Notes: generated from the letters alone by a model not told the origin. Counted from the stretch's first letter, positions 21,384 through 43,504 are shown. The stretch: 64,000 nt of DNA from Phycisphaerales bacterium (GCA_027451365.1 DAIDJN010000059.1:43317-107316); one strand, 5' to 3'. Numbers and translations: made by a program.

Positions 21384-21434
21384 GATGTGCGCTGCGATTC
21401 ATAAAGCAAACAGGGGGCGAAGAGCATGTGACGG

Positions 21435-21990
21435 ATAATCCACAGATTTTCACAGATTCACACAGATTTAAATAAACAGCTAGAGAATCAGGGATAAAAA
21501 AAGTTGGCGGATGATTATCCACAGATTCGCACAGATTGACACAGATTTAAATAAACCGCGAGAGGATTAGGGATACGAATTTGGCGAACGATTATCCACA
21601 GATCTACACAGGGCTTTAGCCTGTAAAATATTAATTATGGTCGCCCTTAATCTGTGCAAATCTGTGTTCATCTGTGGATCAAACCGTCTCTTCGTGGTAA
21701 ATCCGTTCTCGTCGTTAATCTGTGAAAATCTGTGTCAATCTGTGGATGGCATCGTCTTTTTTTTTGTGTTAAATTTAGTCGTCGTTAATCTGTGTCCATC
21801 TGTGGATCAAACCGTCTCTTTGTGGTGAATCGTCCTCTTCTAACTTCTGACTTCTAACTTCTAAATCCTTCGCCGCGTCCTTCGTGTCTTCGTGCCTTCG
21901 TGGTAAATCAGTCGTCGTCGTTAATCTGTGCAAATCTGTGTAAATCTGTGGATGACGTCGTCTTTCTTCGTGGTGAATCGCTCTTTTTCA
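21435..21990. repeat. Intergenic composite inverted-repeat element (CACAGATnnn 10-mers plus other modules), copy 1
   Basis: ATCCACAGATT..CACAGAT arrays flip to ATCTGTG arrays around the central motif at 21611-21643; homologous to 39900-40440. Confidence 0.85.
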
Positions 21991-21994
21991 GATT

Positions 21995-23905
21995 TTAGAT
22001 GCCAGGTTCTTTATGCTTCCGTGTCGCCACGGCGGCATATATGGCCGCGACTTGTGCGGCCATTCTGCTGGCGGTGAAGTGCTCTTCAAACCGCTGGCGG
22101 CCCGCCGCACCCATGGCGCGGGCTTTTTCAGGATTGTTCAAGAGGTCCGCAATTGCGGCGGCCAAACTTTGGGGATTGCCCGGCTCAAACAGCAAGCCAG
22201 TTTGGCCGTGAACCACTATTTCGCACGGGCCGCCGGCGTTGGCGGCGATAACCGGTTTGCCCATGGCCATTGCCTCCAGCAGCACCAGACCGAAAGGCTC
22301 GGCGGGCGCGGGCAGTACAAAAATATCGCAAGCAGACATAAGGGCCGGAATGTCGCGACGGAAGCCTAAAAGCCGCACGGGCGGCTTTTTAATGGGCAAA
22401 GAGCAATGATCAATTGTCAAATGTTTTTGAAGCGCTTCGCTTCCGTTTTCTTCTAGATGCAAGGTGCTGGGTGCTAGATTCTTTTCCGGCTGACTTTTGG
22501 TTAATCTGTGCGAATCTGTGTCAATCTGTGGATTATTCGCCGTATTCTCTGTGTCTAAGCCAATTTCTGTTTTTTGCCCTCTGGCTTTTTTCTCGTTCGC
22601 CGTCGTCAATCTGTGTTCATCTGTGTCAATCTGTGGATTATTCGTCGCATTCTCTGTGGCTAAACCATCTTCTGTTTTTTGCCCCTTGGCTTTTTTCTCG
22701 TTCGCCCCCGTTAATCTGTGCAAATCTGTGTTAATCTGTGGATTATTCGCCGTATTCTCTGTGTCTAAGCCAATTTCTGTTTTTTGCCCTCTGGCTTTTT
22801 TCTCGTTCGCCGTCGTCAATCTGTGATCATCTGTGTTAATCTGTGGATTATTCGTCGCATTCTCTGTGGCTAAATCGTCTTCTGCTTTCTTCATTCCCGC
22901 GAACAGTAATTCGATGAGTTTTTCGATTTCGGGCCGTTGGTCGCCTTCACCGGCGATAAGCAACGCGGGCAACGCCACAGCGTCGCAACCAACCGTTTGG
23001 CGTCGCGAGGAGCTAAAAAAGCTTTGAAGCGCGGCGCTTGCCGGCTTTTCTTTTGTCTCATCCGTCGCCCTCGTCGATCTGTGTTCATCTGTGTAAATCT
23101 GTGGATTATTCGTCGCATTCTCTGCGGCCAAGCCGGCATCTGTTTTCTGACTTCTGGCTTCTGTCTTCTTCTGCTGCTGCTGCAGCAGCGCAAACGCTTT
23201 GATCAGCGTGGGAATATCTTTTTCTTTTTGCAGGCGGGCCGCGCAAAAAACGTTGCGGCGTTTTTCATTGACCAATAATCGCTGATCACTGGTCAATGAA
23301 AAGTCAGAAGGCAGAAGACTGGATGCAGAAGAATGCGGACGCGTTTGGCTTCCGTTTTCTTCTGTTTTCTTCACAACGGGATCCGCATCGCGAATTCCGT
23401 TATGCACGACGGTTATTTTATCTTGGGGCGCATCGTGCCGGGTCAGCATCGCGTCGCGCACGGCCTGCGAAATGGCGATAAACGCGGCGGTGTTATGTTC
23501 CGCCCAGCGGTGCAAACGTGTGGCCAGCCAGGCCTTCGGGCCGCGGCGGCCGGTGCGGTTGGGGGCAAGGAAATGCTGCGTGGCCACAACGCTGCCGCGG
23601 CCGGCGCGTTTCATGGCGGCCACGGCCAGCAGATGGGTGCGGCCGTTGTGTGCGTGAATAATGTCCACCCGACCGGCGCGAAGTTCAGCGGCCAGCGTTG
23701 TGATGGTTGTCAGTCCGGGAAATTTTTCGGCGGCTATGTGGGTCACCGGAATGCGCGCGTCTGTGGCACGCGACCACAAGGCAGATTGGCGGGGGCACGC
23801 GATGGTAACGGAAACGCCCTCGGCAAGCAGAGCGGCGGAAAGGTCGAAAACGTGCGATTCAGTGCCGGCGAACGGAAGGGTGTCCAGGAATTCTATCACG
23901 TGCAT
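21995..23905 (-). CDS. GT4 glycosyltransferase carrying three in-frame repeat-derived insertions
   Basis: GTESHV, DIIHAHN, VVHNGI, ARLQKEKD, LLIAGEG, LLGFRRDI, EPFGLVLLEAMAMGKPVI, interrupted by ~280 aa of repeats. Confidence 0.85.
   Translation of the reverse strand: MHVIEFLDTLPFAGTESHVFDLSAALLAEGVSVTIACPRQSALWSRATDARIPVTHIAAEKFPGLTTITTLAAELRAGRVDIIHAHNGRTHLLAVAAMKRAGRGSVVATQHFLAPNRTGRRGPKAWLATRLHRWAEHNTAAFIAISQAVRDAMLTRHDAPQDKITVVHNGIRDADPVVKKTEENGSQTRPHSSASSLLPSDFSLTSDQRLLVNEKRRNVFCAARLQKEKDIPTLIKAFALLQQQQKKTEARSQKTDAGLAAENATNNPQIYTDEHRSTRATDETKEKPASAALQSFFSSSRRQTVGCDAVALPALLIAGEGDQRPEIEKLIELLFAGMKKAEDDLATENATNNPQINTDDHRLTTANEKKARGQKTEIGLDTENTANNPQINTDLHRLTGANEKKAKGQKTEDGLATENATNNPQIDTDEHRLTTANEKKARGQKTEIGLDTENTANNPQIDTDSHRLTKSQPEKNLAPSTLHLEENGSEALQKHLTIDHCSLPIKKPPVRLLGFRRDIPALMSACDIFVLPAPAEPFGLVLLEAMAMGKPVIAANAGGPCEIVVHGQTGLLFEPGNPQSLAAAIADLLNNPEKARAMGAAGRQRFEEHFTASRMAAQVAAIYAAVATRKHKEPGI
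22500..22880 (-). repeat. ~3.5 x 105-bp tandem repeat (alternating A/B units) inside the GT4 gene
   Basis: Encodes (A/D)TEN(AT/TA)NNPQI(N/D)TDxHRLT(T/G)ANEKKA(R/K)GQKTE(I/D)GL, a 35-aa unit. Confidence 0.9.
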
Positions 23906-24160: not shown

Positions 24161-24577
24161 TCACAAAGGGGAAACGGTGGGGCGACTACCGGGGCGGTGG
24201 AAGCGGGATATGCCATCGCGCAGGTGTACCACATTGAAGTTAATTAATAATCCAACGGCTTTGCCACTGAGCTTCAGGTACGAGATGATTTGCGCCTTGT
24301 GGATTGGCAGGAGCGCGTCAACTGCTTTCAGTTCCACGACAACCAGCTCCTCAACCAGCACGTCAATGCGATAGCCAACATCCAGCGTGGTGCCGTCGTA
24401 CACCACAGGAAGTTCCACCTGGCTCCGCACTGAATGGCCGCTCGTTCGCAGTTCGTGGACCAGGCACGCTTCGTAAGCGCTTTCCAGAAGTCCCGGCCCC
24501 AAGGTGCTGTGTATCCGCATGGCGGCACCTATTATTTGTTCAGTCAGTTCCTTGTGCGCGGCCTCATTTTCGTTCAT
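24161..24577 (-). CDS. GxxExxY protein (PD-(D/E)XK nuclease-like fold)
   Basis: LTEQIIGAAMRIHSTLGPGLLESAYEACL...YRIDVLVE..VVVELKAV...HKAQIISYLK...GLLINFN; GGAGG RBS before the ATG at 24577. Confidence 0.93.
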   Translation of the reverse strand: MNENEAAHKELTEQIIGAAMRIHSTLGPGLLESAYEACLVHELRTSGHSVRSQVELPVVYDGTTLDVGYRIDVLVEELVVVELKAVDALLPIHKAQIISYLKLSGKAVGLLINFNVVHLRDGISRFHRPGSRPTVSPL

Positions 24578-24787
24578 CGGTCCTCCGGTCCCCTCTGTTA
24601 CCTCTGTGTGAATCAATTCCCGGTGTTTTCGTTTCTTTGTGGTCCTAGTGCACTTGTTGGCGGAGTCTATCTCGACGAATCGGGATGGTGAACTCGGTCG
24701 TTCATCGGTCCTCCGGTCCCCTCTGTTACCTCTGTGTGAATCAATTCCCGGTGTTTTCGTTTCTTTGTGGTCTTGGTGCACTTGTTG
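24571..24787. repeat. 89-bp direct repeat x2 (24571-24659, 24699-24787) upstream of GxxExxY
   Basis: Two mismatches between copies; copy 1 supplies the RBS/ATG, copy 2 overlaps the 3' end of the upstream gene. Confidence 0.9.
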
Positions 24788-26117
24788 TCTTAGTGTTGAA
24801 TTTGATCGCCGGTGCTCGCTGGCGGGTGACTTCAAAATGCACCGCCGCCAACATGCCGACAGCGCACCAAGCCCATTCTATGCTGCCGCGCAGCCAATAT
24901 TCGTCCACCATGCCGTGCGCAAAGCGGCCAAAGATAAGCGCGGCTCCCAAGGCCACCAGTGTAAAGCGTGGGTCGGCCGGCGAAAGCTTTTTGTGCGTAT
25001 TCCAGGCGGTTAAAAGGGCCACGGCATATATTGCCAGAAATGCGGCAAGCCCCTGCACGCCGGTTTCGGCAAGGGTAATCAGAAATACATTGGTTGGGTC
25101 CACTTGCTTGCGCAGCCCAACGCCCACGCCCAGCACCGGATGGTTTTCAAATTCATTAATCGCGTGGTGAATCAGTTGGATTCGCGGCTGGATGCTTCCC
25201 TTATTTGGATTAAAATCAAACGCATAATGCTGCTGCTTGTGCGGCAAAAACAAATAAAGCAAAACCAATAACGGCAACATGACCGCAGCCATGCGGGCCA
25301 TTAAAATAAAGCGCCGGCGCAGCAGCAGAATTACCATGCATCCGGTGATGGCTTCCAGCCAGCCGCCGCGTGACAAGCTCATGAATAGCGCCGCGCCGAT
25401 AAGCAGCAAGGCCAAGCCCAGCCAACGGATCGCCCGTTTGCGGCCGACAATTTTGGCACCCAGCCACAACTCAAATGTAATGGCGAAGCCAGCACCAAAG
25501 GAAGATCCCCATGCGGCGTTTTTGTTGTTACCTGGTGGGTAGTGAAAATGGGTAGCCAGCACCAGAATCGCAAGAATCGCTAGTGCACCGACTGCCCCTT
25601 CCAAGGCAAAATGCAGGTCATCCGTTCCGCCAGGAAATGAAGCGCAGAGCATCGGGGCAATTATGATGAATACGAACATTTCCACGAAGGCCTTAATGGC
25701 CTCCAGATGCCAATGCGGATAAAGGGCGCTGGAAACCAAGCAAAGGAAAAGATAAATAACGCTAGGCCACAGCGTGGGGCCAATGCGCAATGGCTTTCCC
25801 ATTTGGGCAGATTTCACCAGCACAATGGGCAGCAGAATTGCCATACACAATTCTGAAATTGAAAGGCGCAAGGGGATATGCAGTGGCACGGCTTGCAGCA
25901 GAGGAACTGTTGCAAAAGTAAGCAATAAACCAATTCGCGGCTGACTTGCGCTAAGGGCAATAAAAATGACAATAAAGCCCGCGCCGGCCACCAGCGGTGA
26001 AAAATGGGCCAAGACCGCGAGTACAACCGCTACGGGCAGCCCCCAGATAGCAACCTGGCCAAGGGATGTCCCCTTGGCCGGTGTCCGGCGTAAAATGTTA
26101 TTGGGCATGGCTGTCAA
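24741..26117 (-). CDS. O-antigen ligase/Wzy polymerase-like membrane protein
   Basis: ~12 TM segments, SLSRGGW, HPVLGVG.G and NVFLITLAETGVQG (Wzy_C-like) motifs. Confidence 0.75.
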   Translation of the reverse strand: MTAMPNNILRRTPAKGTSLGQVAIWGLPVAVVLAVLAHFSPLVAGAGFIVIFIALSASQPRIGLLLTFATVPLLQAVPLHIPLRLSISELCMAILLPIVLVKSAQMGKPLRIGPTLWPSVIYLFLCLVSSALYPHWHLEAIKAFVEMFVFIIIAPMLCASFPGGTDDLHFALEGAVGALAILAILVLATHFHYPPGNNKNAAWGSSFGAGFAITFELWLGAKIVGRKRAIRWLGLALLLIGAALFMSLSRGGWLEAITGCMVILLLRRRFILMARMAAVMLPLLVLLYLFLPHKQQHYAFDFNPNKGSIQPRIQLIHHAINEFENHPVLGVGVGLRKQVDPTNVFLITLAETGVQGLAAFLAIYAVALLTAWNTHKKLSPADPRFTLVALGAALIFGRFAHGMVDEYWLRGSIEWAWCAVGMLAAVHFEVTRQRAPAIKFNTKTTSAPRPQRNENTGN

Positions 26118-27508
26118 TTCGTGGGTGCTCCTATCGCTTGTCCGCTGGCGATAATTGGGTCGCGTGATTTTTCCGGGAAAAAGTTCTTAAGCTTAAGGAA
26201 ATGCTTTTCATAAACGTGGTAGCTGATAAACGCCAACCCAAATGCGATAGCCACGGCGCTGGCGTAGTAGGCTAACAAGCCCAGCAGTGCGCTGTGCAGT
26301 ATTTTTGAAAACAGAGAGTAGGGCAGCCAACGGATTTCTAGCGAAAGGTAAATATAATGGAACACGTACATGGCGTAACTGTATTTGCCAATGGACCGGA
26401 GAAATTGAATGGACAGGAACCGCGACAGGATGGATGCAGGCTTGCAAGTCAGGACGTATCCCAGGGCGGCGCCAAACAGCAGCGGCGCCAGCGTGACATG
26501 GCCAATTACTGCCGTGGGCAGTCCATAAATGTAGCTGGGAACGAAGGCCAGATAGGCCGCAATGATAGCCACGGTAACCACGAAAGCCCCGCCAAAACAA
26601 ATCCGCCATTCCATCAATTGGCCATTGGCCTGCAAAACCGCCAATGCCCCACCGATAAGCAATGAATCCGCCCGAAACAGCGTGAAGCTTGCCAAACCGT
26701 TGTAGATGACAAACGGGTTCCAGCCGGTTCCGGGCATCCATTGAACGGCAATGAAGCCTAATCTACTCAGGTTAATCGCCACTATCCCAGCCACGGCCAG
26801 CCGCAGCAACCAGCGCGGCGGCAACAGGAATACAATCAGCGGCCAGACCAGATAAAATTGCTCTTCAATGGCCAGGGTCCAGAAGTGAAAAAAATTGCCA
26901 AACGGGCTGCCACCTTGGCTGGCGCTGTAAATATTGGTGGTATAGGTCCAAAGCCAAATCTGATGGTGGTAGGCGGCGGAAATCATTTGCGGTACGCGGC
27001 CTAGCACCAGCGGTAAAATAACCAGAATTGCCAGCAATGTGCCGTAATATAGTGGGAATATACGCAGCGTGCGGCGGGCATAAAAATTGCGAAAATAATG
27101 TGCCTGCCCCTTGGATGAAAGCAATATTCCCGTAATAAGATAGCCGGAAAGCACGAAGAATAAATCCACACCCCATGCTCCGTGTGAGAACATTCTGGTA
27201 ATAAATTCCACGGGGCGGCCGCCCGCGGCGATTTGGGAGGCGGGTATGCAGGCACAAAAATGCAGGCCGATAACGCCCAGAATCGCAAAGGCTCGCAGGC
27301 CGTCCAATTCGGGGTAATGCTTGCGGCCGCTGTATAACGGATCCGCCGAGCGCAGCTCTGCGGAGGAGTCAGAAATTAGGAGTTGGGGGTTAGGAGGGCT
27401 TTGAAGCACTTCGCTTCCTTTTCCTTCTAACTTTTGTCTTCTAACTTCTGGCTTCTTTTCCGTCCCCTGTCTTCCGCCTTCTGTCTTCTGATCGTCCATG
27501 TGGTTCAT
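26114..27508 (-). CDS. Acyltransferase 3 (OafA/YrhL family) with repeat-derived N-terminal extension
   Basis: PELDGLRAFA, GVDLFFVLSGYLIT, FYARRTLRIFPLYY, HFWTLAIEEQFY, IGKYSYAMYVFH; TAATG overlap with the upstream stop. Confidence 0.9.
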   Translation of the reverse strand: MNHMDDQKTEGGRQGTEKKPEVRRQKLEGKGSEVLQSPPNPQLLISDSSAELRSADPLYSGRKHYPELDGLRAFAILGVIGLHFCACIPASQIAAGGRPVEFITRMFSHGAWGVDLFFVLSGYLITGILLSSKGQAHYFRNFYARRTLRIFPLYYGTLLAILVILPLVLGRVPQMISAAYHHQIWLWTYTTNIYSASQGGSPFGNFFHFWTLAIEEQFYLVWPLIVFLLPPRWLLRLAVAGIVAINLSRLGFIAVQWMPGTGWNPFVIYNGLASFTLFRADSLLIGGALAVLQANGQLMEWRICFGGAFVVTVAIIAAYLAFVPSYIYGLPTAVIGHVTLAPLLFGAALGYVLTCKPASILSRFLSIQFLRSIGKYSYAMYVFHYIYLSLEIRWLPYSLFSKILHSALLGLLAYYASAVAIAFGLAFISYHVYEKHFLKLKNFFPEKSRDPIIASGQAIGAPTN

Positions 27509-28974
27509 TATTCCTTGCTCGTGGAGTGTTCTATTGCCGCCCCGTAGGCCTCCAGATATTGCTTTGCAATTACCGGCCACGCGAATTGGGCGGCGCGGGC
27601 TTTACCATTTTCGCCAAGTCTTGCACATAGCAACCTATCTGCCGCTAGTTTCTGCATGGCCGTGGCCAATTCAGGAACGTTGCTTCCTTCAACTAACACG
27701 CCATTTGTTCCATCGGCGATAATTTCCGGTACGCCGCCGACCCGGCTTGCAATCACCGCCTTGCCGGATGCCATTGCTTCCAGGTTGACGATACCAAGCG
27801 GTTCGTGGCGGGACGGAAGGACGAAGAATTCACTCCCGGCCATGAATTCAGCCACCTGGTTCCGATCAAGTCGCCCGGTGAAACGCGTATTGGCTGAAAT
27901 GCCGAGTTCCGCGGCCAGCGCCTTCAGATTTTCTCCTTCGGCGCCGGCTCCGCCAAGCACCAGATCGTGCGTTTTGCAGGTGCCCTGGGCAAAGGCCCTT
28001 AGCAGAATATCAAACCCCTTTTCCTTAACAAATCTGCCCATTGCGAACACGTAGCGGCGCGGGGCGCGGCCGCTCAATGAGACAGCCGCCTGCGGCGGCT
28101 TTGATGAGACGCTCGGCTGCGCCTCGCTTAATGAGACGCGATGCGGTGCGTCGCTTAATGTTTTAAAGGATTCGTTATTTATTTCATGGCCAGCGAGCTG
28201 GTCCGCTAAACGGACATCTTTGGCCGCTGATTCAGCCTTGGCGGAACCGTCGTCCTGTTTAAACATTCCTCCGTTTTCCTCTGTTACCTCCTTGTGAATC
28301 CTTCGTAGTCCGTTCTCCTTCGTGTCTTCGTGCCTTCGTGGTAAATCAGTCGTCGTCGTTAATCTGTGCGCATCTGTGTCAATCTGTGGATGAAAATCGC
28401 CCAAGTTTATCCCGTTATAGATGACCCGGCCTTTATCGCCAAATGGCTTGCCGAAAAAAGCTTGCGCCTCTTCCAGGGTCTGCCGGGAGCAGGCGGTTAC
28501 AACCTGCGCGTTGTCCAATGCCCGCCGCAGGATATCTTGCGCCTGGGCCGATTTCTGGAAAATCTGATTGGCATCCATGGTCAATTCGCCCTGCAGCGTA
28601 ACCACCAAAGGCAGTTGCAGACGGTCCTGGGCGATCATGGCGTAATGTGCATTACTGCTGACGCATTGGACATGCAGCATATCAATTTTATTTTCATGCA
28701 GAATCAGCAACATGCGTTGGGTAATCAGGTAATGCGACAAATGGTAGTTAATGGCGGCCTTGGCCGAGCCTTCGGGCAGGCGGAAGGCAAGGCGATAGAT
28801 CGGGATGCCATCAATTGTTTCCGTCGCCGGCAAATCCCGTGGCCAGCGATTGGTCAAGATGATGACATGGTGGCCCTGGCGAATAAGTTCCATTGCCAGT
28901 TGGCGGCAGAGTTCTTCCACACCGCCGAGGGAGGGGTGGAACGCGGAAGCGAAAAGCGCGATATTCATTTTCAA
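27508..28974 (-). CDS. GT4 glycosyltransferase with a ~110-aa repeat-derived interdomain insertion
   Basis: FHPSLGGVE, VIYNGI, GRFVKEKGFD, EPLGIVNLEAMASGKAVI. Confidence 0.88.
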   Translation of the reverse strand: MKMNIALFASAFHPSLGGVEELCRQLAMELIRQGHHVIILTNRWPRDLPATETIDGIPIYRLAFRLPEGSAKAAINYHLSHYLITQRMLLILHENKIDMLHVQCVSSNAHYAMIAQDRLQLPLVVTLQGELTMDANQIFQKSAQAQDILRRALDNAQVVTACSRQTLEEAQAFFGKPFGDKGRVIYNGINLGDFHPQIDTDAHRLTTTTDLPRRHEDTKENGLRRIHKEVTEENGGMFKQDDGSAKAESAAKDVRLADQLAGHEINNESFKTLSDAPHRVSLSEAQPSVSSKPPQAAVSLSGRAPRRYVFAMGRFVKEKGFDILLRAFAQGTCKTHDLVLGGAGAEGENLKALAAELGISANTRFTGRLDRNQVAEFMAGSEFFVLPSRHEPLGIVNLEAMASGKAVIASRVGGVPEIIADGTNGVLVEGSNVPELATAMQKLAADRLLCARLGENGKARAAQFAWPVIAKQYLEAYGAAIEHSTSKE

Positions 28975-30624: not shown

Positions 30625-32041
30625 TCATTGGGGCGGCACGCCGGCCGCCGCCGTCTTCTCCGGGAAATATTTTTTCAGCTTCAGGAAGTGTTTCTCGTAA
30701 AGGTGGTAACTGGCGATCGCGACTCCAAATGTTAGCAACGCATTAGCCAGAATAAAAAACACCGAGCACCAAAGGTTGTTCTGGATTGCGGTGCTCATCC
30801 GCGGGACTCTGAAACATACAGCTCCCGTTAATCCCAATATAATCAGATGGTAGACATATATGCCGTACGCGTAGCCGCCGGCAATTCTAAACGGCCTCCA
30901 CGAAATGGCCCGCTTAAGCATTCCCGTCCCCGGGAGGGATGAATAGAGCACCGTGGCCGCGAACCCAGGCGAGAGGAGGGTGGGAAGGGCATCCAAGCCC
31001 CACGGACTGGATAAGGCTCTTATTGCTTTGTGCGATGACGCGGCCCCATAGGCGATCACCTGAGGCGGAATCGGGCCAATGACCGACCCAAAGAGCGGCC
31101 CAGCAAGCAGAATTGCTCCAATCAACAGCAGAATGGTGACTGAAATCCATGCGATGTTCCTCTGCAGCGGGGCAAGCAGCACGGGGTCGCGGGCCACCGC
31201 TGCGGCGACCGCCCCCATTGCTAGGGAGTCAAGCTGGCAGGGCGTAAAAAAATAATTAGCTTCGTTTGGGGTAGCTGCCAGCGTCAGTCCGAGGCGGCAC
31301 CCCAGGGCGAACACGGCCAACGCTAGACAAAATAGGACAAGCCGCCGCGGTGAAAGCAAGAATACTGCGACCGGCCAGAGGAGGTAGAACTGCTCCTCCA
31401 CCGCCAGCGACCAGAAATGTGTGAGCCAACTGGGGTTGAGGGAAAAAAAAAGCGATCCCGATATTGGTTGTGTAGGACCAGAGCCACGGCATAGCGGAAA
31501 GTATCGCGTGGGCGTTATGGTCACGGCTGTAGAATCCGGGAAGCGCCGCACGCAGCGCGGTGATGATGAAAAGCACGGCAAACAATACGCCGTAATAGAG
31601 CGGGAAGATACGCAGAAATCGCCGCGCGTAGAAATTGCGGTAATAGTTTAGCTGCCCTTTGCTATCCAAGAGTATCCCGGTGATCAGGAAGCCGGAAAGG
31701 ACAAAGAATAAATTGACGCCAATCCATCCCTGGAAGCTTGCAAGTTTGACGACGGCCACCGTACGGTTCGGCGGGGCCAGCCAAAAACCGTAGTGGCAAA
31801 CTAATACCAATAACACAGCGATGCCGCGGAGGCCGTCGAGGGCGGGAAAATGTTTGCGGCCGCTAAAGAAGGGATCCGCAGATCGTGGCTCTGCGGAGGA
31901 GTTAGGGGTTAGGAGTTGGGATTTAGGAGAGCTTTGAAGCGCTTCGCTTCCTTTTTCTTCTAACTTCTGACTTCCAACTTCTAACTTCTTTTCCGTCCCC
32001 TGGGTTCTGCCTTCTGTATTCTTATTATCTGTTTCGTTCAT
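30625..32041 (-). pseudogene. Acyltransferase 3 (OafA family) split by a frameshift in a T9 tract (phase-variable gene or sequencing error)
   Basis: N-half (PALDGLRGIA, GVNLFFVLSGF, FYARRFLRIFP) and C-half (HFWSLAVEEQFY, YAYGIYVYH) are in different frames, joined at the A9 tract 31443-31451; removing one base gives 471 aa. Confidence 0.85.
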
Positions 32042-36405: not shown

Positions 36406-37671
36406 CTAGATTGCTGAACCGGTGTTGGGTTGTGTCTGACTCCACTGGGCCTCCAAAAGCAGAGGTGCGTCGCCCTCGAATCCGCGTGAGCCAGTTCCGT
36501 AGAAATCTCCGGCCTCGACATCGAGCTGCGCGACAGGGTCCCTCGGGAAGTCCGCCTCGGTGCCGGCAACGACGATTCGCGCATGCACGGCGTATCGACC
36601 GGCTGCCAACGGCAAACGCCCGACGGAGCACCGGAACTCGCTGACACCGGCGCCGGCCGTAAACGTGCGCGACTGGTACGATCCGTAAAAGACCGAGAGC
36701 AGTTGCCCGGTGTAGGAGGTAAAGGACATGCCGATGTCGACCTTGGGCACCGGACGCGAATCTGGATTTTCGCAGTTGAAGACGAATTGGAGGGCCATGC
36801 CGGAAAGGGCGGAGCGGATTGTCTTGCCGTGATCGTTCTCGAGCCGGAATTCAGTGATTCGCAAGGCCCCCGTTCCGCTGCGGGCGACGTCCTTTCTGAT
36901 AGTTATGCGGTCGGCGGCTTGTGGATTGGCGGCCCGCAGGTAGGAGTCGATTGCGGTCCTGACTGGGCCCGAGCCTGCGACGTTGCCTCGCTCCAGAAAA
37001 ATAGCCTTGTTGCAGAGACCGGCCACCGAGGCCATGTTGTGGCTGACAAACAATACGGTCCGGCCACTTTTGCTTACATCCTGCATTTTGCCAAGGCATT
37101 TGTTCTGGAATTCGCTATCGCCCACGGACAGAACTTCATCCACAATTAAAATTTCGGAACTTAAATGGGCGGCTACCGCAAAGGCCAATCGCACATACAT
37201 GCCGCTGGAATAACGCTTTACCGGAGTGTCCAGAAATTTTTCCACGCCCGCGAAATCCACTATGGCGTCGAACTGTTTTCGTATTTCAGACTTTCGCATG
37301 CCCAGAATGGCGCCGTTAAGGAAAATATTTTCCCGGCCGGTAAGTTCCGGGTGAAAGCCCGTGCCTACCTCCAGCAGACTGCCGACGCGGCCGAAAAGGT
37401 CGATCTGGCCACGGGTTGGTTCGGTGATGCGGCTTAAGATTTTAAGGAGTGTGCTTTTGCCCGCCCCGTTGCGGCCAATAACGCCCACGACATCGCCTTC
37501 CTGAACGTCAAAGGAGATATCGTTTAACGCCCAGAAGGTTTCGCGGGTGGGGCGGCGGAATGGGTTTTTAAGGCGCGCCAACGCGGCCTCGGCCAGGGTG
37601 ACGTGGTCGGGGGCGTTGTGGCGAATGGTGTAGGATTTGGCTAAACCTTGGACGCTGATGGCGATAGACAT
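36406..37671 (-). CDS. wzt: Polysaccharide ABC transporter ATP-binding protein with Wzt C-terminal domain
   Basis: GRNGAGKST, LLEVGTGFHPELTGRENI, YSSGMYVRLAF, VDEVLSVGD; C-terminal beta domain. Confidence 0.92.
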   Translation of the reverse strand: MSIAISVQGLAKSYTIRHNAPDHVTLAEAALARLKNPFRRPTRETFWALNDISFDVQEGDVVGVIGRNGAGKSTLLKILSRITEPTRGQIDLFGRVGSLLEVGTGFHPELTGRENIFLNGAILGMRKSEIRKQFDAIVDFAGVEKFLDTPVKRYSSGMYVRLAFAVAAHLSSEILIVDEVLSVGDSEFQNKCLGKMQDVSKSGRTVLFVSHNMASVAGLCNKAIFLERGNVAGSGPVRTAIDSYLRAANPQAADRITIRKDVARSGTGALRITEFRLENDHGKTIRSALSGMALQFVFNCENPDSRPVPKVDIGMSFTSYTGQLLSVFYGSYQSRTFTAGAGVSEFRCSVGRLPLAAGRYAVHARIVVAGTEADFPRDPVAQLDVEAGDFYGTGSRGFEGDAPLLLEAQWSQTQPNTGSAI

Positions 37672-37681
37672 AGTGGGGGTC

Positions 37682-37880
37682 CAGAAAACAGAAGACAGAA
37701 AACAGAAGACAGAAGGCAGAAGACAGGAGGCAGAAGACGGAAGACGGAAAACAGAAGGCAGAAGACAGAAAACAGAAGGCAGAAGGCAGAAGACAGAAGA
37801 CAGAAGACAGAAAACAGAAGACAGAAGGCAGAAGACAGAAGACGGAAGACAGAAGGCAGAAAACAGAAGACGGAAGACAG
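37682..37880. repeat. 28 x 7-bp tandem repeat CRGRARR (mostly CAGAAGA)
   Basis: Counted directly; lies between the four-helix-bundle stop and the wzt start. Confidence 0.95.
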
Positions 37881-37917
37881 TTTGAGGCGCCGGGCTTGTG
37901 TTTTGGTTCCTGATTTC

Positions 37918-38295
37918 TTATTCACCTATTTTTGATACATTCGCAAGGATGGCGGCACGGTAGCTGTGCAACAATCGGGCAACTTCCTGACAGTTTTGCC
38001 ATAGGGCTTCTTTATTCAGATGGCCCAGGTCGTGGGAAAGGATTAAATAATAGCGACATTCTTCAAGTGATCCTTCTGCGGTATTAAGGAATTTGGCCTT
38101 GTCGGGTCTGGTTTGCTTGCCGAAGCCTTCAGCAATATTGGCGGAAATTGACACCGCGGCACGGCGAAATTGTGATACAAGGCCGTAGAGTTCATCCTTG
38201 GGGAATTTTCTGGTGGCAATATATACTTGAAGCGTGAACGCGTGTGCTTTTTGCCAGACAATTAGATCTTGAAAGGAAGAAGCGGGCGGCGGCAT
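37918..38295 (-). CDS. Four-helix-bundle protein (23S rRNA IVP / Avd-like family)
   Basis: SFQDLIVWQKAH...FPKDELYGLVSQFRRAAVSISANIAEG...FLNTAEGSLEECRYYL..DLG; AGAAAGG RBS; 125 aa. Confidence 0.93.
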   Translation of the reverse strand: MPPPASSFQDLIVWQKAHAFTLQVYIATRKFPKDELYGLVSQFRRAAVSISANIAEGFGKQTRPDKAKFLNTAEGSLEECRYYLILSHDLGHLNKEALWQNCQEVARLLHSYRAAILANVSKIGE

Positions 38296-38310
38296 GGGGG
38301 ACCTTTCTAA

Positions 38311-38808
38311 AAGAAGACAGAAGGCAGAAGACAGAAAACAGAAGGCAGAAGACAGGAGGCAGAAGACAGGAGGCAGAAGACGGAAGACAGAAGGCAGAAG
38401 AGTTTTGAAGCGCTTCGCTTCCGTTTTCTTCTCTTTTCTGGCTTCTTCGTCGCCGGGTTCTTCGTGTCTTCGTGGTGAACTCGGTCGTATCGTTGCGTCG
38501 TCGTGCCGTTGTGGTGAAATCCGTCGCCTTCTGCCTTCTGTCTTCTGTCTTCTGTTTTCTGGCTTCTTCGTCGCCGGGTTCTTCGTGCCTTGGTGCCTTC
38601 GTGGTGAATCGTCATCTTCTGTTTTCTGTTTTCTGACTTCTGCCTTCTGTTTTCTCTTTTCTGGCTTCTTCGTCACCGGGTTCTTCGTGACTTCGCGTCG
38701 GAGTTTATCCCGACGCATCGGGATGGTGAATCGTCGTCTTCTGTTTTCTGTTTTCTAGCTTCTGTTTTCTGACTTCTGCCTTCTGTTTTCTCTTTTCTGG
38801 CTTCTTCG
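38311..38808. repeat. Composite inverted-repeat array between wzm and the four-helix-bundle gene
   Basis: 13 CAGAAGA-type units (38311-38401), hairpin at 38407-38421, then inverted TCTTCTG tracts within ~4 higher-order units (TTTTCTGGCTTCTTCGTCGCCGGGTTCTTCGTG). Confidence 0.9.
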
Positions 38809-39750
38809 TTAAATAACGTCCGCGAAACGGCGTTCCATTTTCTTAAACAGCATCAGCCCGCTGGCGAACAGGATAATGGCGCACGCGGCGCTCCAGACGG
38901 TGGGGCCGACCAGAAGATGCCCACGGCCCAACAGCGACCAGCGAATGGCGGACAACATGCCCGTAAGGGGGTTGGCACAGTACCAGGGATAAACCCAAAG
39001 TTTGTGGTCTTTAAGGAGCTTGGCGTGAACCGAGGCCAGCGAATAGCCAACCGGGCTGGCATACATAAGCATCTGCATGAATACCGGCAGAATGTATTGA
39101 ATATCGCGATAGCTGACGGCCAACGCGCTGGTGACCATGCCGATGCCCAGCGCGGCCATAAGCATAATTGCGATCCAGATCGGGAGCAGCAGAATGCCGA
39201 CGCCGGGGTTCACACGGTAAATCAGCAGCAGGATAAGCAATACGGAAAAGGCACAGCAGAAGTCCACAATAACGGAAAGACTGCTGGCGACCGGAAGAAT
39301 AACCCGTGGGAAAAAGACCTTGGAAACCAGGTTGGAATTTGCGACCATGCAGGTGCTGGACCGGCTGATGGTGTTGGCGAACAGGTTCCAGCCCAGCAGG
39401 CCGGCGAAGGAAAGGACGAAGTAGGGGGTTCCGGAGCTTTTCATGTGGCCCAGAACGCCGAACACGAACGTGAAAATTAACGCGCCCAGCAGGGGCTGCA
39501 ACACGACCCAGGCGACGCCAAGAATCGTTTGCTTGTAGCGGAGTTTCAGGTCGCGGCCGGCGAGGGAAAAAAGCAGGTCGCGGAATTCCCAGACTTCAAT
39601 AAGGTCTACAAATTTCCAGGGCTTGCTGGGCCGAATGGTAAGGTGCGCGCGGCGCGCGGGCGCAGCGGGGGAAGGCGCCGCGACCACGGCGACTGCCGAT
39701 GGCGACGATTGGGCGGGATCGTTGGTAAGTGAATTCGGAAGTTCAGTCAT
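38809..39750 (-). CDS. wzm: Polysaccharide ABC transporter permease
   Basis: RDLKLRYKQTILGVAWVVLQP, LVSKVFFPR, YRDIQYI, NPL, FKKMERRFADVI. Confidence 0.92.
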   Translation of the reverse strand: MTELPNSLTNDPAQSSPSAVAVVAAPSPAAPARRAHLTIRPSKPWKFVDLIEVWEFRDLLFSLAGRDLKLRYKQTILGVAWVVLQPLLGALIFTFVFGVLGHMKSSGTPYFVLSFAGLLGWNLFANTISRSSTCMVANSNLVSKVFFPRVILPVASSLSVIVDFCCAFSVLLILLLIYRVNPGVGILLLPIWIAIMLMAALGIGMVTSALAVSYRDIQYILPVFMQMLMYASPVGYSLASVHAKLLKDHKLWVYPWYCANPLTGMLSAIRWSLLGRGHLLVGPTVWSAACAIILFASGLMLFKKMERRFADVI

Positions 39751-39774
39751 GGTTATCCAAAGAGGTTAGGGTGA

Positions 39775-40440
39775 TAGAAGGCAGAAGACGGAAAACAGAA
39801 GACAGAAGGCAGAAGACAGAAAACAGAAGGCGGAAGACAGAAGGCAGAAGGCGACGATTTTTACCACGAAGGCACGAAGACACGAAGAACGAGACAGAAG
39901 ATAACGATTTAGCCACAGAGGGCACGGAGAATCCACAGATTAACACAGATTTACACAGATTAACGGCAACGACGGATTTACCACGAAGGTACGAATGGCA
40001 CCAAGGCCAAAGAGGGCACAGAGAATTACACGAATAATCCACAGATTGACACAGATTTACACAGATTTACACAGATTTAATTAACCAGCCAGACAATCAG
40101 GGATACGAATTTGGCGAACGATTATCCACAGATTAACACAGATGAACACAGAGACGACGAACGCAGGGGGTATTGACCAATAAGACCACCAAGGAAACTA
40201 AGGACACAGAGAACAACACATTTAATCCACAGATTTACACAGATTGACACAGAGACGACAACGAGGCGATTAGCCACAGATTCTCACGGGGCTATAGCCT
40301 GTAAAATATTAATTATGGTCGTGGTTAATCTATGAAAATCTGTGTAAATCTGTGGACAGCATCGTCTTTCTTTGCGCTAAATTTAGTCGTCGTTAATCTG
40401 TGAAAATCTGTGTCCATCTGTGGATCAAACCGTCTCTTTG
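39775..40440. repeat. Intergenic composite inverted-repeat element, copy 2, plus a 7-mer tract (39775-39851)
   Basis: CAGAAGA tract, CACGAAG module and CACAGAT arrays flipping around the central motif at 40289-40321. Confidence 0.88.
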
Positions 40441-40483: not shown

Positions 40484-43400
40484 CTAAGCGGATTCGTTGC
40501 TTGCCGCAGCGGGTCCCGGAATCGGGATGGCCGCGGTGGGCGGAATCTGCTTTTCAGAAGCTGCCTGGGCCAGGCGTGTGGTATCCACGGTGGCGATGCG
40601 GCTTTGGCCGAATTCCCGCCAGCGGACTTCCACAAATTCCCGCAGCTTTTCGCGAAACACCGGGCGGCTGAACCGCATGGCGTTGGCGCGAATGGCGTGC
40701 GGGTCCCATTTTAAGCGTTCAAACCGATCTACCGCTTCGTTTAAGCTTTCCGCGGTATGTTCCATAAAGAACATTCCCGTGGCACCATCCACAACCGTTT
40801 CCGTGGCCCCGCCATGGCCGAAGGCGATAACGGGCGTGCCGCAGGCCTGGGCCTCCACCGGCACAATGCCGAAGTCTTCTTCGGCGGCGAAAATGAAGGC
40901 CCTGGCGTGCTGCATGTAATGGCGGAGTTCGGCTTCGGGCAATCGGCCGACCAATTTCACATTCGGACCGGCCAGAGCTTGAATTTTGTTGAATTCCGGG
41001 CCTTCGCCAACCACCACCAGGCGGCGGTTGGGCCTGCGGGAAAACGCTTCCACAATCAGGTCCATGCGTTTGTAGGGCACCATGCGGGACGCGGTTAAAT
41101 AATAATCCGCTTTCTGGCTGTCCAGCGAAAATGTATCTGTATCCACGGGCGGATATAGCGTGGTGGCCGATCGACCATATACCTTGTTAATGCGGCGGCC
41201 GACAAAATCGGAATTGGCTATAAACGCATCCACGCCATGGCTGGTGCGGACATCCCATAGTCGCAGGTAATGAAGAATGGCCCGCGCGGCCAGGCTTTTT
41301 ATTCCCGCCGTTAAGGAGGCTTCCTTAAGGTACTGGTGCTGCAGGTCCCAGGCGAAACGCACCGGGCTGTGGCAGTAGCAGATGTGAAGCTGGTCGGGCC
41401 GTGTCAGAATTCCTTTGGCCACCAGATACGAACTGGATAACACAATGTCGTATTGCGATACGTTAATTTGTTCAATCGCCATGGGCATCAGCGGCAGATA
41501 GGCGCGGTGTTTGCGGCGGGCCAGCGGCATTTTCTGCAGAAAGCTGGTGGTGACGGGTTTGTTCTTTATGAACGCCCGGTTTTCCGGTGGAAGGAAATCA
41601 AACAGGCTGAAAAGGTCCGCACTGGGGAAAACCTCCAGCATCTGTTCCAGCACCCTTTCGGCTCCGCCACAGGTGTACAGGAAATCGTGAACAATGGCGA
41701 TTTTAAGATCACCGACCGGACGGGTATAGCGGTGGCGCAATGGGTCGATATTTTCCAGTGGCGGCGTAATGCGGCCGGCGATGGGTGGGGGAATTTCAGC
41801 GATCAATCCCGGCGGGGGGGAAAGTGCCGGGACCGGGTCTTCGGCTTTCTGACTTTTTGCATCCATGTTCTTACCGGTGTCCTTGAATTCTTCTTTATTC
41901 CGCGTTCTTTGTTCGCCGAAGTTTATGGCCTTGAAAATGCCCGAGCCGGTATTTTTCTGTCCTTTTCCGGGTGGATTGGGCTTGCCGGAACCAAAAATAC
42001 GTATTCGGAACGGACCGGGGTTCTGGTCTGGCAGGCTGGCCAGAGAATTTTCTTCCATCAGCCGCGCAAACAGCGCCAGCCGATGCCCGGCGGATTCCAG
42101 AAACGTGGTGCTGGGAATGGTGAGTTCAAGTGTCATGTGCGGGCCGATGCGCCGATGGCGAATGGGCAAAGAAGCCTGCAGCAGCGGGGCACCGGCGAAA
42201 TCTTCCTCCGGGGCGGTCCAGAAGCGCGGTTCCGTGGTGCCATCTCGCCGGGTAATGGTCATGGCCACCCGGCTGAAGTGCAGCATTTGCGCGCCTTGGC
42301 ATACGCTTTCCCACCAGGCATCAAACGTGCCGGCGCGGCTTAAACGAAGCTGCAGCATTTCAAACGCCTGCCGGTATTGTTTGCTTTCGCGGGCCAGTTG
42401 CCGATTGCGCCGAATGGCGTGAATAAGGTCGAAGAATCGCGTGGACCCGGCGGAACGGAACAGTACCAGCAGCAGAAACGCCAGAATCAACAGGTACAAG
42501 ACCCGCAGATTGCGGCCGCAATTCAGGATTAATATCGCCAGCAGGCCGGAGGCTGCGCTGAAAACATACAGGAAATAGACCGCATGTTTATGACTCAGGC
42601 CAAGGTCAAGCAACCGGTGATGAATATGGCCGCGTTCAGCCGCAAAAAGGGATCGGCGGTGCAGAATGCCGCGGCGTAAAAGAGTGGCCACGGTATCCAG
42701 CAGGGGGACGCAAAGGGCAATGGCGGGCACCAGGACGCCTTCCAGATTTCCGGTTTTGCCGGCCAGAGCCACCGTGCCGGCGGCAATAACAAAGCCAATA
42801 AACAGGCTGCCGCCATCGCCCATGAACACCCGTGCCGGATTAAAATTAAACAGCAGAAACGCGGTAATGGACCCGGCCATGGCCAGCATAAGAATGGCAA
42901 TGCTTACTTCACCAAGCGCCGCGGCGGTAATGGCGACAACGAGTGCCGCAACGCCGGAAATACCGCCGGCCAGGCCATCAAGCCCGTCGGTAAAATTCAG
43001 GCTGATGGGCACGGTTATAAGCCAGAACATGGTTACTGGCCACGCAAGCCAGGAAAGGTGCGTCAGCCAGGCGGGCGCGTTCCAGGCGGCCGGCAGGATC
43101 AGATTCGGAATCGGTATCTGCGCGCCGTAGGCGGTAAAAAGCCATGCGATAACCAGCAGCCCAATAAGCTTGAGTTTGGCCGGAATATTAATCAGATCAT
43201 CCACCACGCCCAGCGCCAGCAGCATAAGGGAAGCGGCTATCAGGGCGGCCATGGGAGTGCGAATAAGGTGGCCAACCATTTCGGAACTGCGATAGACAAT
43301 CAGCACCGGAATGGCGACGGCCATGGCGGCCAGTGCGATGGCCAGCCCGCCGACGCGGGGAATGGGTCGCTGATGCACTTTGCGCGCATCGGGTACATCC

Positions 43401-43504
43401 ACCAGGCCAAGGTGCTTGGCCATGATAATAACGGGCGGCAGCAGCAGCACGCCGGCGCAGATCCCACCCACGTAGGAAATGCCGTACCATGATGAATGAT
43501 CCAT
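40484..43504 (-). CDS. WecA/MraY-family phosphoglycosyl transferase fused to a GT4 (WbaZ-like) glycosyltransferase
   Basis: N-part: DVPDARKVH..PIPRVGG, GVVDD, NFTDGLDGLA, FMGDGGS, HIHHRLL. C-part: AIVHDFL..GGAERVL, YCHSPVRFAWD, EEDFGIVPVEAQACG. Confidence 0.88.
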   Translation of the reverse strand: MDHSSWYGISYVGGICAGVLLLPPVIIMAKHLGLVDVPDARKVHQRPIPRVGGLAIALAAMAVAIPVLIVYRSSEMVGHLIRTPMAALIAASLMLLALGVVDDLINIPAKLKLIGLLVIAWLFTAYGAQIPIPNLILPAAWNAPAWLTHLSWLAWPVTMFWLITVPISLNFTDGLDGLAGGISGVAALVVAITAAALGEVSIAILMLAMAGSITAFLLFNFNPARVFMGDGGSLFIGFVIAAGTVALAGKTGNLEGVLVPAIALCVPLLDTVATLLRRGILHRRSLFAAERGHIHHRLLDLGLSHKHAVYFLYVFSAASGLLAILILNCGRNLRVLYLLILAFLLLVLFRSAGSTRFFDLIHAIRRNRQLARESKQYRQAFEMLQLRLSRAGTFDAWWESVCQGAQMLHFSRVAMTITRRDGTTEPRFWTAPEEDFAGAPLLQASLPIRHRRIGPHMTLELTIPSTTFLESAGHRLALFARLMEENSLASLPDQNPGPFRIRIFGSGKPNPPGKGQKNTGSGIFKAINFGEQRTRNKEEFKDTGKNMDAKSQKAEDPVPALSPPPGLIAEIPPPIAGRITPPLENIDPLRHRYTRPVGDLKIAIVHDFLYTCGGAERVLEQMLEVFPSADLFSLFDFLPPENRAFIKNKPVTTSFLQKMPLARRKHRAYLPLMPMAIEQINVSQYDIVLSSSYLVAKGILTRPDQLHICYCHSPVRFAWDLQHQYLKEASLTAGIKSLAARAILHYLRLWDVRTSHGVDAFIANSDFVGRRINKVYGRSATTLYPPVDTDTFSLDSQKADYYLTASRMVPYKRMDLIVEAFSRRPNRRLVVVGEGPEFNKIQALAGPNVKLVGRLPEAELRHYMQHARAFIFAAEEDFGIVPVEAQACGTPVIAFGHGGATETVVDGATGMFFMEHTAESLNEAVDRFERLKWDPHAIRANAMRFSRPVFREKLREFVEVRWREFGQSRIATVDTTRLAQAASEKQIPPTAAIPIPGPAAASNESA

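Follow-up and report, generated by a model that had tools for sequence, protein, structure and literature searches.

REP/BIME mosaics, and REPINs with RAYT, are mosaics of short motifs located between the genes of operons; they form hairpins, are non-autonomous and occur in many copies. The Rickettsia palindromic elements are hairpin repeats inserted in frame within protein loops, and integron cassette arrays carry small genes in series, often toxin-antitoxin genes, with imperfect hairpins between them that are likely read as single-stranded DNA. PF05635 and GxxExxY genes occur commonly in bacterial operons, where their presence is unexplained.

Excerpts of a report on Coxiella (PMC4990558) describe an intervening sequence (IVS) with an S23p ORF, inverted repeats and a variable count of heptameric repeats in the stem region, which is cleaved by RNase III. 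According to the accessible portion of another study (10.1101/2023.10.23.563531), the pentameric Avd protein of the diversity-generating retroelements (DGRs) engages an RNA stem-loop through each of its five protomers. Abundant heptamer repeats have also been noticed without explanation, according to the available part of PMC4692102. Our literature search, which reached few subscription papers, found no description of repeat-armed elements of the present kind in operons.

Here we analysed a stretch of 64,000 nucleotides from a Phycisphaerales bacterium (GCA_027451365.1 DAIDJN010000059.1:43317-107316), hereafter the window; the genome that carries it (G000) is 93% complete. We propose that the spacer between wzm and wzt is probably an insertion of a selfish, repeat-armed family of DNA elements, tolerated by the operon via self-pairing. 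This reading is preferred over that of an RNA switch because the same repeats, together with other small cargo, fill many gene gaps and even enzyme loops, both in this cluster and in relatives.

Anatomy of the wzm-wzt junction

The features lie on the minus strand in the order 10-mer array, 8-mer tract, CU1, wzm, purine modules, hairpin core, CU2, four-helix gene, CU3 and wzt. The first-pass annotation had placed a four-helix gene between wzm and wzt, with CU- and AG-rich tracts around them; Pfam and NCBIfam models confirmed the three genes, and the tracts were confirmed as well, with a period of 7. The gene wzm (38809..39750) encodes an ABC-2 permease (PF01061), and wzt (36406..37671) an ABC ATPase (PF00005, with Wzt_C below cut-off). 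They belong to a polysaccharide cluster comprising a TPR gene and a WecA-glycosyltransferase fusion, followed by many glycosyltransferases. In this fusion (40484-43504) a WecA-like domain is joined to a GT4 domain by a degenerate word linker; the two parts match separately in G016.

The four-helix-bundle gene (37918..38295) encodes 125 aa that score far above the curated cut-offs of PF05635 (123.7 bits vs 33.8; E 4.6e-36) and TIGR02436 (113.8 vs 24). The protein matches structure 2GSC (E 4.8e-15), and by analogy with the five chains of that structure and with the accessible text of PMC4990558 it would form a homopentameric ring. Its gene has a GC content of 47%, compared to 57-58% in the neighbours, and a GC3 of 46%, compared to 66-73% in wzm, wzt and wecA; this GC3 marks it as a presumably foreign gene.

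Upstream of wzm are an array of 10-mer words (CACAGATTNA type; 39934..40422), in purine and then in pyrimidine orientation, and CU1 (39775..39888), which unites pyrimidine heptamers (39775-39851) with an 8-mer tract (39865-39888). The CU1 block is an inverted copy of a whole purine module, linker and 8-mer word included. The purine side, which had been described as a single AG arm, turned out to have four AG blocks, arranged in tandem as three modules (136, 102 and 121 bp) and a short fourth one of 44 bp. The first module (u1, 38674..38809) begins within the wzm stop codon and contains the AG1 heptamers, a linker and the 8-mer word, which is present in each full purine module. It is followed by u2 (AG2; 38572..38673), u3 (AG3; 38451..38571) and the short u4 (38407..38450), which ends in the hairpin core GAAGCG-AAG-CGCTTC with a GCGAAGC mini-hairpin; the period-7 tracts of this side are at 38736-38805, 38615-38669 and 38528-38567, and those of CU1 and CU2 at 39776-39850 and 38312-38401. 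The heptamer tract CU2 (38311..38401) closes a gene-less hairpin element, and CU3 (37682..37880) is a pyrimidine tract of 28 units (28.4 copies). As had been claimed, the CU tracts lie just 5' of translation starts, ending about 24, 15 and 10 nt before the ATGs of wzm, the four-helix gene and wzt.

The hairpin noted in the first-pass annotation is a conserved core, GCG-NAG-CGCTTC, which as in REP/BIME/REPIN is a multi-copy intergenic hairpin motif, found at four sites in the window and 20 in G003. In the latter genome the N-A-G loop occupies 20/24 non-mirror pattern sites. All four N bases occur among the core loci read, the core is found in both orientations, and pyrimidine words follow it at 18/18 sites with enough flank, these sites having been chosen for the core. 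The loop was present in 0/10 pattern matches of G011 and G018, and the core is clade-limited. GCGNAGC was dropped as a class-wide hallmark, since its enrichment near four-helix genes across the class was weak (30 vs 22±3.6 in 96 loci). In excerpts of PMC13037366, GCGNAGC is described as an unusually stable DNA mini-hairpin whose quoted RNA counterpart is much weaker, and hairpins of this type are said to mark single-stranded phage origins and promoters.

Homologous four-helix genes were found at 79 loci, 74 of which were kept (four had a short flank, N or a misread ORF and were excluded, as was one duplicate). Period 7 was present upstream in 29/74 and downstream in 44/74 loci, with none in shuffles and at most 2 for other periods. 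Flanks were purine-rich upstream in 48/74 and pyrimidine-rich downstream in 45/74, and both the purine-then-pyrimidine polarity and period 7 hold across phyla. Inverted stems were detected at 48/74 loci, compared to 1/148 shuffles, with no clear stem in 26; the stem bases bridge the upstream stop and the downstream start with a median gap of 16 nt (40 loci), and the neighbours are co-directional on both sides in 41/65 loci. Among 41 genomes, some of them kin and hence non-independent, the heptamer pattern occurred in 23 of the 34 with PF05635 and in 0/7 without it, being absent from 11 carriers. In some genomes more than 200 overlapping heptamer matches stand beside 3-5 genes, suggesting that many copies are gene-less.

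The words spread through the cluster and the cargo changes between relatives

The words of the junction recur across the cluster. A region of 29 kb holds 15/37, 7/14 and 19/21 of the genome's matches to the 7-, 8- and 10-mer patterns, compared to 0.26, 0.10 and 0.15 expected, the patterns having been derived from that same region. A sister element composed of purine words, core and pyrimidine words (31897..31989, minus strand, as are all the following) forms an in-frame N-terminal part of an acyltransferase ORF, and another sister element (27400..27490) lies at the N-terminus of a second one. In a GT4 gene (27508..28974) the linker between the domains carries a word mosaic of about 95 codons, in frame, and a further GT4 gene (21995..23905) has three in-frame word insertions, one of them ending in the core. 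Between genes, a GxxExxY (PF13366) gene (24161..24580) carries its own inverted word arms, and a gene-less word hairpin (21434..21975) combines 7-, 8- and 10-mers, purine then pyrimidine.

Several details accompany these copies. The first acyltransferase (30625-32041) is divided between an ORF at 31256-32041 and one in another frame at 30625-31581, which may reflect a frameshift. The GxxExxY locus (24161-24835) has a duplicated purine arm upstream and complementary arms downstream, so that the layout is shared but the word is different. The GT4 gene at 21995-23905 is enlarged to 636 aa, and its insertions include a 105-bp unit present 3.7 times.

The slot before wzt differs between relatives, whose wzt proteins are 68-76% identical. 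At 15 of 21 wzt loci wzm was located within 1.5 kb; none of these 15 junctions carried a four-helix gene, two had short heptamer runs and none conserved the tract arrangement. No near-identical empty site was found for the exact wzm-wzt junction. In G016 the order is wecA-wzm-wzt, with wzm and wzt overlapping and the slot empty; in G014 two ordinary genes separate wzm from wzt, and G011 has a small ORF with a different heptamer before wzt. In G003 and G019 other words precede wzt, and among them lie GxxExxY and toxin-antitoxin genes (UPF0175/DUF3368, PIN and nucleotidyltransferase/HepT). A second G019 spacer contains a nucleotidyltransferase, another four-helix subtype, an antidote gene, MazE/PIN and GxxExxY, with word hairpins between them. 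At the same GT4 linker, in-frame word mosaics of differing content are present in G000, G003 and G019 and absent from G012, G014 and G016. The only same-genus genome searched, G001 (93% complete), is without a close wzt, PF05635 or the heptamer pattern, which suggests recent gain or loss of the cluster.

Strain contigs from four DNA runs were also compared. Among the matches listed, the tracts and gene showed 36 differences in 667 nt and wzm 6 in 1026 nt, although repeats can yield chimeric contigs, and in these assemblies the order of units within the tracts varies between strains. None of the strain-contig joints listed from the four runs skips the four-helix gene. Opposite-strand joints such as 38613/39892 and 37847/38446 were rejected as inversions: their sides are about 33 nt long, 85% alike and at non-homologous positions.

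Other loci carry related arrangements. A second word hotspot, G000:C18:6500-12600, lies among pilin-like (GFTLIELL) genes, where the words fall within the leader regions or ahead of them, and has counterparts in G003 (L162) and G019 (L175, L176). Four-helix genes are found directly 3' of a tRNA gene, after 194-bp tandem hairpin units, at G000:C77:26900-27900 and in L132, L136 and L138, and in G020 and G024 the tRNA-linked hairpin unit and four-helix gene are repeated in tandem. CRISPR-like arrays that repeat every 70-73 bp occur in G000 on C29, C42, C56 and C81.

Predicted pairing of the tracts and possible routes of mobility

The long-range pairing on which the first-pass annotation relied was indeed predicted by RNA folding, stable and beyond chance (z about -8 to -11): relative to 25 dinucleotide shuffles each, the duplexes of the AG region with CU1, CU2 and CU3 reached z of -7.6, -9.8 and -11.2. 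What did not hold was the idea that one AG arm chooses between alternative partners. With true loop lengths and the coding regions kept unpaired, the lowest-energy fold pairs CU1, CU2 and CU3 simultaneously (-371 kcal/mol). Omission of CU2, CU1 or CU3 gave -353, -329 and -299 kcal/mol respectively, the three-tract fold thus being 18 kcal/mol lower than the best two-tract fold. The three pairings are compatible rather than mutually exclusive because the purine side consists of several tandem modules. In the fold that lacks CU1, the partner of u1 is the end of CU3, which brings the wzm stop and the wzt start to about 17 nt from each other.

In the folds computed, start windows were never buried in long stems; across forced folds their unpaired share was 0.47-0.87 for wzm, 0.6-0.8 for the four-helix gene and 0.6-1.0 for wzt. 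As modelled, the locus does not appear to form the mutually exclusive folds that hide a start or build a terminator in riboswitches and attenuators.

With a stem scoring that credited Watson-Crick pairs only, juxtapositions in the stems of the 48/74 homologous loci were G·U in 74 cases and A·C in 93 (p 0.16); the compared genomes are kin, so that p-values are overstated. By comparison, 21 terminator-like hairpins of the genome that carries the window gave 14 G·U and 1 A·C, and the nine main pairings of the window, which are non-independent, gave 7 G·U and 36 A·C. Since there is no excess of G·U over A·C in the arms, they give no sign of selection for an mRNA duplex. As far as sequence comparison can tell, the balance argues against ongoing selection for an RNA switch; the symmetric mismatches would also fit neutral decay after RNA-mediated insertion, and an RNA step in mobility is compatible with them.

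Of the alternatives to a selfish element, the one that survives best is that the arms persist as stems serving RNase III processing or stabilisation, which segment the operon mRNA and tune subunit levels for the host. We consider it unlikely. The predicted uninterrupted helices of 30 bp, the RNase III gene present in the genome, the RNase III cutting of the heptamer-repeat IVS in the Coxiella excerpts (PMC4990558) and the pyrimidine tract found directly before the wzt start in G000, G003, G011 and G019 would all agree with it. Against it, G·U is not in excess, the antisense strand of the spacer folds better than the sense strand (-219 vs -176 kcal/mol), and word and cargo vary between relatives; this possibility is also disfavoured because cutting the copies located inside coding frames would be harmful.

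The second possibility, which we regard as doubtful, is RNA-mediated mobility, in which an Avd-like four-helix pentamer would bind its own hairpin RNA and recruit a reverse transcriptase in trans. The four-helix protein matches Avd models weakly (E 5e-4 for Pfam bAvd, 1.3e-6 for NCBIfam, 1.8e-8 for PHROG), and Avd binds its RNA stem-loop via all five protomers in the text available (10.1101/2023.10.23.563531). Moreover, word type tracks protein similarity (Mantel r -0.54; 72/110 loci), but two sampling sets and co-inheritance confound this correlation, which leaves recognition inseparable from the latter. The protein scores below the Avd cut-off (28.6 bits vs 80), and the core, present in both orientations, suits DNA. 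The one reverse transcriptase found is a short stand-alone protein of 295 aa on another contig (G000:C18:43237-44124), with neither words nor a four-helix gene beside it and far from the four-helix genes.

An improbable third alternative is that the words are plain slippage microsatellites without dedicated machinery, and that the locus, tolerant and subject to horizontal exchange, receives the small genes independently. The variation in unit order between strains would be expected, and no mobilising enzyme emerged from the RAYT searches: the 93%-complete window genome has no PF01797 or NF047646 match to the RAYT (Y1) transposase. Plain slippage is at odds, however, with the fixed polarity and period across phyla, with the pyrimidine words that follow the core at every site scored, and with a heptamer pattern seen in PF05635-bearing genomes only.

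Finally, a host-evolved switch controlling wzm, the four-helix gene and wzt, in which the oligomeric protein would read the choice of one AG arm among three CU tracts, is very improbable and the weakest of these readings: the closeness of the tracts to the ATGs, the pairing partners that shift during simulated transcription of a shortened construct and the varying accessibility of start windows would speak for it, but, like a processing site that controls the transporter, it is unsupported because the tracts pair at once, the mRNA strand shows no G·U bias, the same words lie across the cluster and within coding frames, no wzm match was found within the 1.5-3 kb flanks of 108 other four-helix loci, and the wzt slot of relatives holds other or no cargo, to which are added the lack of conservation in the 15 junctions, a pyrimidine tract directly before the four-helix ATG in only 1/74 homologs, and no Rfam family at gathering score (three weak matches fell below it), sigma-70 promoter or mRNA-strand terminator match at the locus.

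Regarding a mobilising enzyme, a protein of about 540 aa is head-to-head with the four-helix gene at 10/79 loci and has at least 6354 relatives. Searches of Pfam, PHROG and PDB gave no sequence match for it; its model (pLDDT 88.9) matches rolling-circle Rep_trans initiators weakly in Foldseek (E 2e-3 to 7e-3, TM 0.18-0.20) and the TBP fold with Z 8.7 (rmsd 4.0, 175 residues). The four-helix gene was beside it in only 4 of the 62 relatives with enough flank and is therefore a passenger there. We therefore rejected this protein as the family's own transposase, also because searches for it in G000, G003 and G019 came back empty. In a filled/empty pair, a four-helix cassette is inserted near the end of an element encoding this protein, with a repeat of at most 2 nt. 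The protein defines an IS-like, unannotated family (L085:1306-3410; L159 on G009:C2; L180-L259) with a predicted TBP-like fold and C-terminal winged helix. Its elements end at CTA/CTAG with differing flanks, and two lineages have different four-helix genes at the same end.

The proposed element and its described counterparts

We return to the selfish, repeat-armed element as the preferred reading. A foreign four-helix gene and a gene-less hairpin would have been inserted between the purine words after the wzm stop and the pyrimidine words before the wzt start. Pairing of these arms on the mRNA is predicted to loop the insert out without burying a start codon. We infer that such elements insert where a stop meets a start or where a protein loop is permissive, that they may grow through slippage and tandem module duplication, and that words and cargo may be swapped via recombination between arms. 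They would persist because only about 12-17 nt separate the wzm stop from the wzt start once the arms are paired. Their action is most likely exerted on DNA, in the form of single-stranded hairpins; the putative four-helix pentamer is likely a word-binding helper of the family, and a putative cutting enzyme would act in trans.

A more speculative extension, which we think rather unlikely, is that the word arms and the GNA-loop core are recombination sites of an undescribed integron-like platform of single-stranded DNA hairpin cassettes. Such a platform would load four-helix, GxxExxY and toxin-antitoxin genes into surface-polysaccharide and pilin-like loci and reorder core genes such as wzm, the four-helix pentamer reading the heptamers. 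In the window wzm is bracketed by inverted modules, and in G019 it is located elsewhere in the cluster: there it follows the TPR gene on another contig and wecA runs to wzt without wzm, a single case in a fragmented assembly.

As a specific regulator of wzm and wzt the locus appears unremarkable. If the elements form one repeat-armed family, rRNA intervening sequences, heptamer repeats and the scattered small genes of polysaccharide clusters would share a testable cause. The locus supplies defined substrates (word arrays, the core hairpin and the 125-aa protein) and illustrates how elements may remodel surface-sugar enzymes and gene order.

Like REP/BIME/REPIN, the elements are multi-copy, non-autonomous intergenic hairpin mosaics within operons, but their arms are tandem heptamer, octamer and decamer arrays carrying genes, and the RAYT models found no counterpart in the 93%-complete genome. 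With the Rickettsia palindromic elements they share in-frame hairpin repeats in protein loops, but have variable tandem words instead of a single conserved palindrome, and a linkage to four-helix and GxxExxY genes. As in integron arrays, small genes, including toxin-antitoxin genes, are placed in series and separated by hairpins (the single-stranded reading being putative here), whereas core biosynthetic genes are interleaved with the cargo. The four-helix protein is from a family related to Avd, but falls below the Avd cut-offs and has no adjacent reverse transcriptase or template repeat.

The likeness to rRNA IVSs claimed by the first-pass annotation stood: the ORF-bearing 23S rRNA IVSs of Coxiella and Leptospira share with the present element the S23p/PF05635 family, a sense-strand ORF within inverted repeats, here predicted to form a long stem, a variable number of heptamers and a sporadic, horizontally gained distribution. 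In contrast, the present element is located in a protein-coding operon, between wzm and wzt and without any rRNA match; it includes nested hairpins without a gene, modules in tandem and words of three lengths, and its cargo is exchangeable in relatives. The element is IVS-like in build, but is not a member of the IVSs.
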